The notes beneath the pieces are model-generated. The model was not told the origin of the DNA. It ran no database searches and saw only the letters and a list, made by a program, of their open reading frames with translations. DNA of 64,000 nt. It comes from an uncultured Bdellovibrionales bacterium. GTDB taxonomy: Bacteria > Patescibacteriota > Minisyncoccia > Moranbacterales > DUUL01. The translations under genes and the position numbers were made by a program. Positions 3,510-47,830 of the stretch are shown here, piece by piece. The stretch spans positions 7,355-71,354 of the forward strand of contig CAYFUG010000002.1 of assembly GCA_964346295.1 (NCBI GenBank), in the 5' to 3' direction. Numbering within the stretch: position 1 is the first letter of the stretch; each line of letters starts with the position of its first letter.

Positions 3510-3849
3510 CTAATCTGACTCGCCCCGAAATTTTTTTATTGCATCATCTTTTTCTCGCAACGACTTAATAGCATCCGTAATCTGGTTCCAATGTCTTATT
3601 GCATCATAAATATTTTCTTGAACTGACTCTAGGAACTTATCATTGCCTATTCTTTCAGCTTCATCTAGCCATACTCCCATTTTAAGCAATTTCTCCCTAA
3701 AATAAGGAAGTGTCTTCTTTAAATGTTCGTTTTCCGGAGCATTGTTAATTGCCCCCCCCCAATTTCGTTAATAAATTCCTTAAATCCCCAACTCTATCAG
3801 CTCTTTCTTTTTTTCTGTCAATAGGACTATTTTGGCCTAGAGTTTCCAT
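3510..3849 (-). pseudogene. Hypothetical 113-aa gene interrupted by a frameshift inside a G9 (plus-strand C9) homopolymer; candidate phase-variable or sequencing-error site
   Basis: Minus-strand ATG at 3849 gives METLGQNSPIDRKKERADRVGDLRNLLTKLGGGN* with the stop immediately after the G9 tract (plus 3752-3760). Removing one G restores a continuous ORF ending ...AIKSLREKDDAIKKFRGESD* at 3510. Confidence 0.4.
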
Positions 3850-6218: not shown

Positions 6219-7112
6219 TTATCTGAATTTGGCCTTCTTTCTTAATTCTTCTGTGGTGACTGATAGAGAGGTCCGATCCTCAAAATCAATTCTAACCCTT
6301 CCCGAAAGCACTTGCAAATCTCCGATTATCCCCGGGCGGTCCTCCCAAATCAATCTCCTACCTCGCTCTGGAAATTCTTTTAACATTTCGGAATATTGCT
6401 CTGCCTCGTAGGCCAAGCAACACATCAGGCGACCGCAGATTCCTGATAGTCGATCCGAGCCGCGATGAGAAATTAGCTGGCAACGAGCTAGGTCAGTAGA
6501 AATACTAGGAAGACTACCAGAGAATTTTTTGCAGCAAATTTCCCGGCCGCAAATTCCGTAGCCTCCTCGGCGCCGAGCCTCGTCTCGAGAGCCAATTTGT
6601 TGAAAACGAATGGACTTGCCAAATTGAGCCGAGAGTTCTCTTACTAATTGCCGAAAGTCCACTCGGCCGTCCGCCACAAAAGAGATTACCGCGCAACTCC
6701 CCTCCAGGCTAATTCGAGCATCTACTATTTTCATCGGCACTTCCAGTTGCCGGGCTCGCTCTTTGACTACCTCGATAATTTCTAGTTCCTTTTCTTGGTA
6801 GCTTTGATTGTTCGCTAAGTCTTCCTCATTAGCTAAGCGCACCGCTCTACCAGCAACTTCGTTTTCATAGCTCTTGCTGTCATCGGTTTGATTGCCTTTC
6901 TTATCAGTACTATTTTCTTTCTCTTTGGAACAACTTCCAGCTCCGCAGCCCAATCCGCAACTGCTTCCAAATCTATCTTCGGGACTAAAAACCTGAGCCA
7001 AAAAAGTTCCCCATTCGTGCTCTACCACTACCGCATCCCCACGCTTAACAGTCTCCGAAAAATCCGGTTCTACTTTCCGCAGACGATCCCACTCAAAAAA
7101 ACGAACTATCAT
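6219..7112 (-). CDS. PSP1 C-terminal domain protein (RicT/YaaT-like)
   Basis: Cys-rich GICGREICCKKF ... GICGRLMCCLAYE motifs characteristic of the PSP1/RicT family. Confidence 0.8.
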   Translation of the reverse strand: MIVRFFEWDRLRKVEPDFSETVKRGDAVVVEHEWGTFLAQVFSPEDRFGSSCGLGCGAGSCSKEKENSTDKKGNQTDDSKSYENEVAGRAVRLANEEDLANNQSYQEKELEIIEVVKERARQLEVPMKIVDARISLEGSCAVISFVADGRVDFRQLVRELSAQFGKSIRFQQIGSRDEARRRGGYGICGREICCKKFSGSLPSISTDLARCQLISHRGSDRLSGICGRLMCCLAYEAEQYSEMLKEFPERGRRLIWEDRPGIIGDLQVLSGRVRIDFEDRTSLSVTTEELRKKAKFR

Positions 7113-7159
7113 ATTGAAAATTGCTAATGTTTAAGAATAACTAACTAAACAAAACCTGG

Positions 7160-7546
7160 CTACCTATTATATTTTGCAACCTCAATTAGATTACCTTCAG
7201 TGTCATAAAATTGAAAACATCGATAGTAGTAATCAGTAAAATCTAAGTTTTCCGGCTCATCTTTGATCTTAACATCTTCATACATCTTAACCTTTTCGTA
7301 GACCGCATCAACATCATCAGACCAAAAAGCAACAATGGAATTATTCCCAACTGTCCTTTTATTTGAAATGATATCAGGATTTATTAAACCAAAATAACAA
7401 CCTTCACCAAGATCAAAATCAGCCCAACGGTTCTCTTCATAGTTGGAAACTTTCCGGCCCAAAAGATCTTCATAAAATTTAATCGCTCTATCAAGATCTT
7501 TTGCTGACACATAAGAATGGTCAAATTTCATTGTTGCCTTTTTCAT
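7160..7546 (-). CDS. VOC/glyoxalase-bleomycin resistance family protein
   Basis: Size and ...RAIKFYEDLLG... pattern typical of glyoxalase-fold proteins; somewhat AT-rich. Confidence 0.7.
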   Translation of the reverse strand: MKKATMKFDHSYVSAKDLDRAIKFYEDLLGRKVSNYEENRWADFDLGEGCYFGLINPDIISNKRTVGNNSIVAFWSDDVDAVYEKVKMYEDVKIKDEPENLDFTDYYYRCFQFYDTEGNLIEVAKYNR

Positions 7547-16463: not shown

Positions 16464-17519
16464 ATGAAAACAACCTATTTTTCCACATTCATCTCCGGCG
16501 CCCAAGAAATAGTCCGACGCGCCCTTCAAAAAAGATCCCGGGTCAAAATCATTGACCTGCTGGACGGTTTAGTAGTGTACCAGACGGACTATAACGAGAA
16601 AGATTTGCGAGAAATTCGCTTTTTTAACAACACTTTTCGTCTCCTGGGCAGCTACCAAAATGTCCACGATTTTCTAGATCTAATCAAGGCCGTTACCAAG
16701 GACAAATCTCTCGGTGGAACTCTCAAAAATCTTTTTACAACCCCTACCACCTATCGGCTATTCACCTCAGAGGAAAACCGCTCTATTAATCCGGGCTTGC
16801 CGGCCTTAGAAACTCTAGAGCAAAAAATCTCTCAAAATCGCTACCTAAAAACCGATTTTAAAAAATACCAACAAGAATTTTGGCTCATTTGGCGAAGAGG
16901 AAACCAGGGCTTTCTAGGCGCTCGTATTACTGGTAAAAAGCCTCTCGCCAAGCACCTCAAAGCTGGACAACTCCGCCCAGAACTGGCTCACTTAATTTGC
17001 CTAGCTTCTCGCCCTGGCCCCCAGGAGGTAATTTTGGATCCCTTTGCCGGCCAAGGAGGATTGCTAACGGAGCGCTTACGAGCTTTTCCTTTTAAAAAAG
17101 CTCTCGCCTTAGAAGAAGACGAGAAACTAGCTAATGACCTCAAGGGTAAAATTTTCCGCGCCTATCCCAAAGAAAAAGTCCAAGTCCGCCGAGAGAGCGC
17201 CCTGGAAATGGGATTTTTAGAAAATAACTCCATTGATAAGATCATCACCGATCCGCCCTGGGGACATTTTAAAAAACTAGATCAACCAGAAGAATTTTAC
17301 ACCCAGATGCTCCAGGAATTTTACCGGGTGCTTAAGTCGAGAGGCCTGGCAGTAATTTTGATGGGCGAGAATTTTCAATTTGACCAGATACTCCAAAGCA
17401 TGACAACTAAAGACAAAAATAATCAGGCAGATCCACTTCCCTCACCTTGGAAGATATCAGCCCAACATCACCTGTTAGTTTCTGGCCGAAAAGCTAATTT
17501 GTGGATTTTAAAAAAATAA
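16464..17519 (+). CDS. THUMP-domain class I SAM-dependent RNA methyltransferase (COG0116-like, N2-guanine/N6-adenine type)
   Basis: DPFAGQGG SAM motif I and DPPWG motif IV; N-terminal THUMP-like region. Confidence 0.8.
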   Translation: MKTTYFSTFISGAQEIVRRALQKRSRVKIIDLLDGLVVYQTDYNEKDLREIRFFNNTFRLLGSYQNVHDFLDLIKAVTKDKSLGGTLKNLFTTPTTYRLFTSEENRSINPGLPALETLEQKISQNRYLKTDFKKYQQEFWLIWRRGNQGFLGARITGKKPLAKHLKAGQLRPELAHLICLASRPGPQEVILDPFAGQGGLLTERLRAFPFKKALALEEDEKLANDLKGKIFRAYPKEKVQVRRESALEMGFLENNSIDKIITDPPWGHFKKLDQPEEFYTQMLQEFYRVLKSRGLAVILMGENFQFDQILQSMTTKDKNNQADPLPSPWKISAQHHLLVSGRKANLWILKK

Positions 17520-17603
17520 ATTAACCCAAATAGAATCATAGCACTGCCACGAACCCGTTCTAGCAATCACAAAAAGTCCCCTTAAATTTGAATCACCAAA
17601 AAA

Positions 17604-17628
17604 ACGCCTCTCGGCGTCTTCTCTCAGA
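17604..17628 (+). terminator. Possible intrinsic terminator after the methyltransferase gene (weak U-tract)
   Basis: acgcc-tctc-ggcgt hairpin followed by cttctctc. Confidence 0.3.
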
Positions 17629-17689
17629 AAACTAGAAATGACTAACAGTCCAAGAACTTTCTCGTTTTAGGACATTTTTAGAGAAAAGT

Positions 17690-17772
17690 GAGGCTTTAGT
17701 TGAGAATTACTGAAGCGTACAGCGAGAGTAAAACGCAGCTTTTGACAACGAAATTTTCAAAGTGAGAAAGTC
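17690..17772 (+). repeat. Intergenic structured repeat, compact copy E
   Basis: gaggctttagttgagaattactgaagc + gtacagcgagagtaaaacgcagcttttgacaacgaaattttcaaagtgagaaagtc matches the family 5' and 3' blocks; lies just 3' of the tRNA-like gene. Confidence 0.65.
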
Positions 17773-17784
17773 TTAGCAATACAG

Positions 17785-17883
17785 TGCAGACGAGAGGATT
17801 CGAACCTCTAACCTCCTTACTTTCTCTCGTTGACACTGCAACGAGAGAAAGTAAAGCGCTCAGCCTTTTTGAGCTTCGTCTGC
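17785..17883 (-). tRNA. tRNA-like gene with a 25-nt insertion in the anticodon loop forming an 18-bp continuous hairpin; anticodon ambiguous (UUC/Glu if 37/38 intron; GAA/Phe alternative)
   Basis: Minus strand reads GCAGACG-AA-GCUC-AAAAAGGCU-GAGC-G-CUUUA-[32 nt]-UAAGG-AGGUU-AGAGG-UUCGAAU-CCUCU-CGUCUGC-A. It has a 7-bp acceptor stem, D arm with GG, and canonical T arm (G53, UUCGAAU, C61). A8 is atypical. No encoded CCA. Confidence 0.6.
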
Positions 17884-18043
17884 CGCAATTTGATAATTTG
17901 CTTGTCTCCAAGATTAGCAACTTTTCTGATTTTGTCAATATTTTTTTAGACACTTTTTAAACAACCTCGGGATTCAAAAAAACCATGGAGGTAGACCAAA
18001 TCAAGCAAAGTTGCTATTCTAAGATTGAATTAACCGGGACAAC

Positions 18044-42610: not shown

Positions 42611-42705
42611 TCAAGTACAAATCGCTTCCCCCAGTTTACTCCGACTGGAAGCTCCGAGACCTCCGTTCCTCCGGGAATGGGGGTCGTTTATTAGTGGAGG
42701 AATTA

Positions 42706-42822
42706 CGCATTTGGAAAATTTCGTTGTTACAAGCTGCGTTTAGCGCTCACCGTACCCTTCAGTACGCCTCCCGCTAAGCCTCGCTTGCGCCTAGTAATTT
42801 CCTCAAATCCGTAATCCCTAGG
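42706..42822 (-). repeat. Intergenic structured repeat, copy K, inverted orientation
   Basis: Minus strand reads ctagggattacggatttgaggaaattactaggcgcaagcgagg ... gtacggtgagcgctaaacgcagcttgtaacaacgaaattttccaaatgcg, matching the family 5' and 3' arms. Confidence 0.75.
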
Positions 42823-47769: not shown

Positions 47770-47830
47770 GTGTATAACAAACGAGTAACAGAGATTTTGA
47801 CATCAAAATTTTCAAAATTTGGAAGCCCCT
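47770..47830. repeat. Diverged repeat-family copy with palindromic core, directly 3' of tuf
   Basis: aacaaacgagtaacagagattttgacatcaaaattttcaaaatttggaagcccc resembles the family 3' block plus the palindrome. Confidence 0.45.

Follow-up and report, generated by a model that had tools for sequence, protein, structure and literature searches.

The 64,000-nucleotide (nt) stretch of contig CAYFUG010000002.1 analysed here (hereafter the window) carries, on its minus strand at positions 17785–17883, a 99-nt tRNA-like element in which the anticodon stem-loop is replaced by a closed helical arm. The rest of the element has the fold of an ordinary tRNA, the sequence of this tRNA body is conserved in a related species and in a second class of Patescibacteria, and no anticodon is common to the homologues. 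The interpretation towards which we lean, if only moderately, is that of a conserved, rare and non-decoding tRNA mimic, which would be matured like a tRNA and whose rod-like arm would exclude it from the ribosomal decoding site. The host belongs to the Patescibacteria (candidate phyla radiation), close to Moranbacteria, and comes from a microbial-mat metagenome; its cysteinyl-tRNA synthetase (CysRS) is closest to 'Patescibacteria group bacterium' and 'Candidatus Moranbacteria' proteins (58–62% identity).

Structure of the tRNA-like element

Read on the minus strand, the full element is GCAGACG-AA-GCUC-AAAAAGGCU-GAGC-G-[CUUUACUUUCUCUCGUUG-CAGUGU-CAACGAGAGAAAGUAAGG]-AGGUU-AGAGG-UUCGAAU-CCUCU-CGUCUGC-A. 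The Rfam tRNA model (RF00005) matches exactly these 99 nt, scoring 47.4 bits where the gathering score is 29 and E is 5e-7 over the entire window, with 28 nt in the anticodon loop treated as an insertion. This was the sole match in an Rfam scan of the window, in which neither ARAGORN nor Rfam detected a canonical tRNA or any other Rfam-recognised RNA gene. At permissive Rfam thresholds no second family was reported for the element, the microRNA matches being hairpin noise. The minimum free energy structure is likewise a cloverleaf, with the third arm as an unbroken helix of 18 base pairs (bp) and a 6-nt loop. Its fold energy of -50.2 kcal/mol compares with -26.2 +/- 3.0 kcal/mol for dinucleotide shuffles (z = -8.1), and none of 200 shuffles folded as well. 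Both the Rfam score and this cloverleaf support the call of a tRNA-like gene in the first-pass annotation, which had been made from the sequence without database searches.

The structural details listed in that annotation (stems, discriminator A, A8, GG, loops and 18-bp arm) are all present in the sequence. The 5' strand of the acceptor stem (GCAGACG, 17877–17883) forms seven of seven pairs with 17786–17792, and the 3' strand, CGUCUGC, occupies 17785–17792 together with the discriminator base A73. CCA is not encoded, the next bases being CUG. A8 and A9, the D arm (GCUC-AAAAAGGCU-GAGC, with GG in its loop) and G26 were placed at 17857–17876 by the Rfam alignment and the fold, and the body is completed by the variable loop AGGUU (17810–17814) and the T arm AGAGG-UUCGAAU-CCUCU (17793–17809). 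When the tertiary core was read against standard tRNA numbering, A14, the contacts of G18 and G19 with the T loop, A9-A23-U12, C13-G22-G46, G26-A44 and A15-U48 were all found to be possible. The 7-bp acceptor stem, the D and T arms and the tertiary nucleotides of a decoding tRNA are therefore in place, with A8 instead of U8 as the sole deviation of the core. A8 was also met during the scans in two otherwise normal tRNAs, Met-CAU of L072 and Gly-GCC of L074.

The long arm occupies 17815–17856, where the 32 nt between CUUUA and UAAGG extend the anticodon stem to 18 perfect pairs (17839–17856 with 17815–17832) closed by the hexaloop CAGUGU (17833–17838); it was also detected as an inverted repeat (I1) in the window. 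With the canonical bacterial elongator tRNA of RF00005 the element thus shares the 7-bp acceptor stem, G18 G19, the 5-nt variable loop, UUCGAAU, A73 and the core triples, whereas the 7-nt anticodon loop and U8 of that tRNA are replaced by a closed 18-bp helix, with no anticodon common to the homologues, and by A8. The check with tRNA predictors that had been proposed for the locus gave a divided answer. The cloverleaf is accepted by Rfam, but ARAGORN in its default mode called nothing in the window and missed every member of the family described below across all loci examined. With introns allowed it reported a tRNA-Leu(CAG) whose register is shifted and whose intron would measure 21 nt.

Conservation, transcription and genomic context

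The comparison with orthologous loci that had also been suggested yielded a conserved syntenic element. Contig L005, from a related species with the same gene arrangement (NUDIX protein 71% and CysRS 79% identical), carries a 99-nt element at the same place. The tRNA body is identical between the two at 56 of 57 positions and the long arm at 35 of 42, against 49.5% identity at the third codon positions of the NUDIX gene. Six changes fall in the stem of the L005 arm, three of them giving G-U pairs and three a 2x2 internal loop, with 16 of the 18 pairs kept. The -35 hexamer, the TGn and TANNNT motifs and the A/T-rich stretch upstream are also kept, and the 3' flank is unalignable. Because body, arm and promoter are retained while the NUDIX third codon positions have diverged to this extent, the element is evidently under strong purifying selection and is not a decaying gene, which contradicts the decaying tRNA that had been offered as one explanation.

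The element is predicted to form a unit of its own with a putative sigma-70-type promoter. The -35 hexamer TTGACA (17933–17938, minus strand), read from the sequence and identical in L005, is separated by a 16-nt spacer from an extended -10 region, TGcTAATCT (TGn plus TANNNT, 17911–17918), for which L005 has TGcTAGTCT in the same place. The A/T-rich stretch upstream of the -35 hexamer (GTTGTTTAAAAAGTGTCTAAAAAAATA) is identical in L005 and the spacer bases differ. It should be noted that a consensus promoter scanner did not list this promoter, the -10 region of which matches the consensus at three of six positions. Transcription would start near 17903–17905 and leave a leader of ~20 nt. Downstream, a 3' trailer of ~160 nt (17624–17784) that is not conserved in L005 runs to a predicted intrinsic terminator, GAGAAGACGCC-GAGA-GGCGUUUUUUU (17596–17623); the terminator of L005, GGCGCC-GGGA-GGCGUUUUUUU, sits nearer its element. 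An open reading frame at 17696–17953 (minus strand) that overlaps the element was rejected as non-coding, since L005 has 29 nt inserted into its leader, which disrupts the frame.

For more distant homologues, one genome for each of 185,579 species was scanned with a 22-nt query made up of T-arm bases and the acceptor 3' strand (GGTTCGAATCCTCTCGTCTGCA). The single match was in L012, a 'Candidatus Saccharibacteria' metagenome-assembled genome, and is itself part of a long-armed element, GCGGACG-AA-GCUC-AAUGGU-GAGC-G-[40-nt arm]-AGGAA-GGGGG-UUCGAAU-CCUCU-CGUCUGC-A, which scores 39.5 bits with the tRNA model and has A8A9, the D stem, G26 and A73 as in the window. An identical element is present in L073, from a lake metagenome, and a 91-nt element with a 37-nt arm in L075, a second Saccharibacteria species (trigger factor 84% identical). 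The body of the window copy is identical to the Saccharibacteria copies at 48 of 54 aligned positions, and the arm sequences are unrelated. The acceptor 5' strand is GCGGACG in the Saccharibacteria copies, which therefore carry G3:U70 together with A73, the determinants of alanine identity, whereas the copies of the window and L005 have A3-U70. The variable loop is AGGAA, AGGCA or AGGUU in the homologues, and none of the four family members departs from CCUCU in the 3' strand of the T arm.

The arm of L012 consists of 8 bp, an internal loop AAA/AAAAG, the distal stem GGCCA/UGGUC and the loop GUAAUA, and L075 follows the same plan with AAA/AAAG, GGCUA/UAGUC and a GAAA loop. Between the two, a pair of A-U is changed to G-C and one of C-G to U-A, in each case on both sides, with the A-rich internal loop kept; these compensatory changes indicate that the arm is structural. 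Across the family, the arm is evidently conserved in length and helical character and the body in sequence. The window, L005, L012 (= L073) and L075 all conform to GC[A/G]GACG-AA-GCUC..GAGC-G ... AGGNN-NGNGG-UUCGARU-CCUCU-CGUCUGC-A with a closed arm of 37–42 nt, and the family spans two deep lineages, since the host of the window is close to Moranbacteria and the homologues are Saccharibacteria. A covariance model (R1) trained on the window and L005 could not serve to define the family, since ordinary tRNAs reached scores in it as high as those of the homologues from Saccharibacteria. The R1 alignment included an antisense row, and a MAFFT alignment of the four family sequences misaligned the D arm. 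The family-specific pattern had 0 matches in viral sequences, and full-text literature searches on tRNA-like RNAs in Saccharibacteria or Patescibacteria and on extended anticodon stems found no matching description.

In the Saccharibacteria contigs, a structured RNA of ~150–190 nt immediately precedes the element in the interval between tRNA-Leu(UAG) and tig (L075 ~2099–2245, L012 ~3570–3720), and it is also present in L078 (~1945–2058). It has a helix CACCAUCUGCCC/GGGCAGGUGG, a 14-bp long-range helix and two inner hairpins, with 16 predicted pairs kept through two-sided changes, and has no Rfam match. A transfer-messenger RNA (tmRNA) reading of this region was rejected, because the consensus fold places the apparent frame 'GCC AAC UUU UAA' in a hairpin (AAAAAG/CUUUU) and no tmRNA was called. 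Odd tRNA genes also occur upstream of tig in Saccharibacteria contigs (L078 2059–2129 and 2342–2417; L080 2172–2249). Two of these have 8-nt anticodon loops (ACGACAAU and CUCACACG) and are reported by ARAGORN as tRNA-???, and one has a 3-nt 7/10 connector, CAA, and the anticodon AUC.

In the window, the element is flanked on one side by a gene for a UPF0020-type methyltransferase, in convergent orientation, and on the other by a divergent block of NUDIX, P-loop kinase and CysRS genes, and no integrase or phage gene stands beside it. The methyltransferase gene (RlmKL/Trm14-like RNA methyltransferase, 16464–17519, plus strand) ends 266 nt from the element; a functional link between the two is doubtful because the adjacency is lost in L005. 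As had been noticed in the first-pass annotation, a repeat copy lies directly 3' of the element. This ~90-nt intergenic repeat (17692–17782, within the trailer), probably the annotation's 'family E', has a second copy on the opposite strand at 42688–42780, in a 500-nt gap between two minus-strand genes. Partial matches occur near 47795 and 61243, and the core is TACTGAAG.GTAC.G.GAG...AAACGCAGCTT.T.ACAACGAAATTTTC. The trailer also holds a long-range helix (inverted repeat I10, 17656–17668 with 17759–17771), absent in L005, the core of which (ACUUUCUC/GAGAAAGU) is the 8-mer pair of the middle of the arm; this recurrence suggests a local duplication. The arm was not found as a dispersed repeat in the window, its 13-mer giving three matches at up to two mismatches, all at the element locus, against 2.9 expected. 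Insertion of a miniature inverted-repeat transposable element or repetitive extragenic palindrome into a tRNA gene was thus rejected, since the arm does not recur and the 3' repeat is a different sequence. Of the earlier proposal of a tRNA-derived regulatory or mobile element, the regulatory option survives, and the mobile one is not supported, the insert not being repeated. The GC skew is strongly negative across the whole window (1–64000).

Proposed mode of action and alternative explanations

As a non-decoding tRNA mimic, the product would be a stable small RNA, made from a sigma-70-type promoter of its own, that adopts the L-shape of a normal tRNA with its acceptor stem, both the D and the T arm, the elbow and the core triples. 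Every feature by which tRNAs are recognised by RNase P, by the enzymes of 3' trimming and CCA addition and by proteins that read the acceptor and T arm is kept in the element. Because the L-shape is kept, tRNA-like maturation of the ends would be expected, namely 5' trimming by RNase P, 3' trimming and addition of CCA by the CCA-adding enzyme. A closed rod of ~16–18 pairs would stand in place of the anticodon stem-loop and offer no anticodon. Because the D stem and the 18-bp arm together exceed the anticodon limb of a normal tRNA by ~13 pairs, the rod would be too long for the 70S decoding site, the molecule could not span the decoding and peptidyl-transferase centres, and we infer that it is excluded from the ribosome. 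The conserved top half (acceptor sequence, A73 and T arm) may then be the working surface for a tRNA-binding partner, e.g., an aminoacyl-tRNA synthetase or another reader of the acceptor and T arm, with the variable arm as a spacer or excluder that would keep the molecule out of translation. The retention of the acceptor stem in sequence, and not in pairing alone, across two classes points to a sequence-specific partner of the top half. In every copy, pairs 49-65 and 51-63 of the T stem are either A-U or G-U; judging by EF-Tu affinity studies, such pairs would predict weak binding of EF-Tu.

Several observations weigh against this interpretation. The family rests on four distinct sequences from two lineages, and the difference at 3:70 between the lineages speaks against a single synthetase identity for all copies. 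Neither the trigger-factor relatives L076, L082 and L083 nor the next CysRS relative, L085 (65% identical), has the element at the equivalent locus; being missing from these somewhat more distant relatives, it is evidently rare and dispensable. It is also absent beside the NUDIX homologues P0003, P0005 and P0008 (44–49% identical), which have another gene neighbourhood. No partner protein could be linked to it through its gene neighbourhood. In the comparison of the window with L005, two neighbouring arm pairs are broken and not compensated, and six of the seven arm changes lie inside the stretch that an intron at 37/38 would fill, a pattern which also fits an intron.

A genuine decoding tRNA, most consistently Glu-UUC, with a short hairpin intron removed by a route new to bacteria, e.g., cleavage by RNase III or another nuclease specific for double strands and then joining by an RNA ligase, is considered unlikely. 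Apart from the position of the substitutions within the putative 25-nt intron, it would fit the invariance of CUUUCU on the 5' side between the window and L005, and ARAGORN accepts the window gene once introns are allowed. However, a single excision from a perfect helix leaves a 7-nt loop to which one strand contributes x bases and the other 7-x, and as these remnants stay complementary, C32-G38 and usually U33-A37 would form Watson-Crick pairs. Only x = 6 or 7 avoids the pairing, giving U37, and position 37 is a purine in nearly all tRNAs. Neither directly nor after excision is there a 5-bp anticodon stem with a 7-nt loop containing U33, an anticodon and a purine at 37. The anticodon also depends on the register, with Glu-UUC, Phe-GAA, Leu-UAA and Sup-UUA all obtainable. 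The Glu-UUC (with U37) and Phe-GAA readings of the first-pass annotation are arithmetically correct for the window but do not carry over to a real intron-bearing tRNA, as the Phe reading becomes Ser-GGA in L005, Glu needs U37 or C32-G38, and ARAGORN prefers Leu-CAG, in L005 again in an odd register. The Saccharibacteria homologues have UC at 32–33, no UUC, no U33 in any register and no shared anticodon, and ARAGORN with introns reported nothing in L012 or L075. Furthermore, the arm is kept in length (37–42 nt) and shows compensatory changes, as would a structural element.

The type of intron is a further difficulty. The insert had been judged to be neither a group I nor a bulge-helix-bulge intron, and this judgement holds: it has 25 nt against ~200 nt or more for a group I intron with its catalytic core, no Intron_gpI match was found at E up to 10, and the arm offers no bulges to a splicing endonuclease, the window helix being bulge-free and the internal loops of L005 and the Saccharibacteria copies lacking the form of 3-nt bulges 4 bp apart. 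Phage tRNAs are reported to contain short introns that lack an explanation (PMC6784885), and Patescibacteria are rich in tRNA introns, but the 22 found in 95 complete Patescibacteria genomes were all group I (PMC13011429). In the same genomes, the tRNA genes missed by standard predictors were tRNA-Asn and tRNA-Asp (PMC13011429). Taken together, the perfect helix, the arbitrary readings, the lack of U33 in the homologues and the group I precedent make it improbable that an intron-bearing tRNA is encoded here.

It is also rather improbable that the element is a tRNA-shaped processing signal, kept for RNase P and 3' trimming of a neighbouring RNA, as mascRNA is for MALAT1 or as tRNAs are in polycistronic stable RNA, with the tRNA-like RNA as a by-product. 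RNase P requires only the acceptor/T-arm stack and the elbow, and these are the conserved parts. In Saccharibacteria, moreover, the element stands directly 3' of the conserved structured RNA with its covarying helices and directly 5' of a terminator, and in L078 it is another odd tRNA that comes after this upstream RNA. Against this, nothing conserved is co-transcribed in the window and L005, where the leader is ~20–50 nt and the trailers are unalignable. Recognition by RNase P does not demand a nearly identical acceptor sequence across classes (48 of 54 body positions), nor does it demand 83% identity of the arm on a neutral background of ~50%.

A functionless pseudo-tRNA, whether a former gene disabled by insertion or duplication of a palindrome or a remnant of a phage or integrative element, is less probable still. 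The patchy distribution and absence from close relatives, the recurrence of the arm core ACUUUCUC/GAGAAAGU in the trailer helix beside the intergenic repeat, with its hint of local duplication, the similar long-armed genes on phage contigs and the replacement of the near-universal U8 by A8 would all be in keeping with it. However, body (56 of 57) and arm (35 of 42) are far more conserved than neutral sites (~50%), the promoter elements are kept and the body sequence is conserved between two classes of Patescibacteria. In addition, the arm is not a member of a repeat family, no integrase or phage gene adjoins the element in the window, and A8 occurs in the otherwise normal tRNAs of L072 and L074. 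Least probable of all is a reduced, tmRNA-like rescue RNA that would carry alanine and work together with SmpB, with a tRNA-like domain, a helix-2-like rod and no tag frame, as in the jakobid mitochondrial tmRNA: G3:U70 with A73 in the Saccharibacteria copies, the long helix where the anticodon arm would be and the acceptor GCGGACG/CGUCUGC, which appears to resemble that of Bacillus tmRNA, speak for it, but the window and L005 have A3-U70 in place of the alanine determinant, which is therefore not conserved, the D stem is a full 4 bp, unlike in tmRNA, an ARAGORN tmRNA search found none, Rfam reports tRNA and no tmRNA family, the arm has no tag reading frame and smpB is not adjacent.

Related architectures and implications

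Mimics of tRNA are already known, and several resemble the element in part. The engineered tRNA scaffold of Ponchon and Dardel has the same architecture, an intact tRNA body with the anticodon stem prolonged by a cargo hairpin, and such chimeras are reportedly processed and stabilised like tRNAs in Escherichia coli. The scaffold is artificial, however, whereas the element is natural and conserved, has its own promoter and carries a 'cargo' without recognisable function. The tRNA-like domain of tmRNA and the tag-less mitochondrial tmRNA are likewise anticodon-less mimics with a long helix leaving the core, and share G3:U70 and A73 with the Saccharibacteria copies; the element differs in its full D stem, the lack of an mRNA-like part, A3-U70 in the window and the lack of an ARAGORN tmRNA call. 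The bacterial Y RNA YrlA, which is bound by Rsr/Ro, is a non-coding mimic of T arm, D arm and acceptor that is handled by tRNA enzymes. It is permuted, with the RNA ends in a long Ro-binding helix and the acceptor-like stem closed, whereas the ends of the element lie in the acceptor stem, and the YrlA/Y RNA family (RF02553) was rejected as a candidate at 18.8 bits against a gathering score of 69. mascRNA and the tRNA-Other of Bacillus cereus are tRNA-shaped, are processed by tRNA enzymes and are not used in ordinary decoding, but the anticodon arm is shortened in mascRNA, an anticodon loop is retained in tRNA-Other, and neither has a long rod.

The long-arm design evidently recurs on phage contigs. 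A pattern scan of metagenomes recovered phage tRNA-like genes in which a single long hairpin stands for the anticodon arm, including an identical 90-nt element near the portal-protein gene in L025 (9385–9474, minus strand), L043 and the IMG/VR contig L086 (2079–2168, minus strand). The L025 element has an arm of 7 bp, an AAGA/C loop, 6 bp and GAAA, with A8A9, G26, AGGUA and A73. In L027, which also encodes an integrase and RusA, three long tRNA-like genes (6851–6961, 7129–7263 and 7399–7528) follow in a row behind the genes of the small terminase subunit and a P-loop kinase. A linkage of P-loop kinases to long-armed elements was rejected, as this kinase and the AAA_18/AAA_33 protein of the window share only the P-loop. 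In these phage genes the anticodon arm is replaced or interrupted by 30–55 nt, and ARAGORN with introns gave implausible calls (Stop-UUA, Asp-AUC and Pro-CGG) and nothing for L025. Their acceptor stems differ, and they were therefore kept out of the Patescibacteria family. The tRNAs of Lak megaphages carry 'enigmatic introns' and, according to the authors, keep recognisable anticodons (Devoto et al., 2019; PMC6784885). These tRNAs and the phage genes of L025/L043/L086 and L027 resemble the element in that a short insertion other than a group I intron, with no known route for its removal, lies in the anticodon arm, but they are phage-borne and have other acceptor stems, whereas the element is chromosomal and syntenic in two species.

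Two further observations were made in the scans. In L049 (1298–1392) and L068 (43–135), a dense tRNA array contains a tRNA in which the anticodon UAU is combined with A8 and with a long variable arm resembling that of class II tRNAs, which is unusual for an Ile-type anticodon. A nearly invariant sequence of ~87 nt, CGCTGGGAAGCTCAAGCCAGAGCACTCCTATTCGGGATAAACAGTTGCACTTATACATTATGGATGGTTCAAATCCGCTTGTCAAGG, occurs in the human-gut contigs L014, L015, L018, L019, L021, L022 and L026 and ~18 more, and is not tRNA-like (three of seven acceptor pairs).

What is new in the present element is the combination of a complete cloverleaf core, a closed rod whose length is conserved, the lack of an anticodon, a promoter of its own and conservation across classes. 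Loci of this kind also carry a risk for annotation, as covariance models call them tRNA, ARAGORN misses them and intron-aware tools assign arbitrary anticodons, and they can corrupt the tRNA inventories and genetic-code inferences made for organisms known only from metagenomes. The near base-for-base retention of the core beside a rod conserved in length shows which half of the molecule is selected and provides a handle for a search for its partner. Non-decoding tRNA-shaped RNAs such as tmRNA, Y RNAs and mascRNA have each revealed distinct biology. If the element were instead spliced of a short intron, a bacterial route of tRNA splicing not known until now would follow, which would be at least as interesting. 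A more speculative and, in our view, doubtful proposal is that these RNAs form an undescribed class of anticodon-less tRNA mimics in Patescibacteria, with phage analogues, which would be charged through their acceptor determinants alone (with alanine in the G3:U70 copies) and barred by the rod from the ribosome. If this were true, they would be dedicated aminoacyl donors or decoys outside the ribosome, serving a process such as aminoacylation of the cell envelope, tagging or the titration of a toxin or enzyme that targets tRNA.

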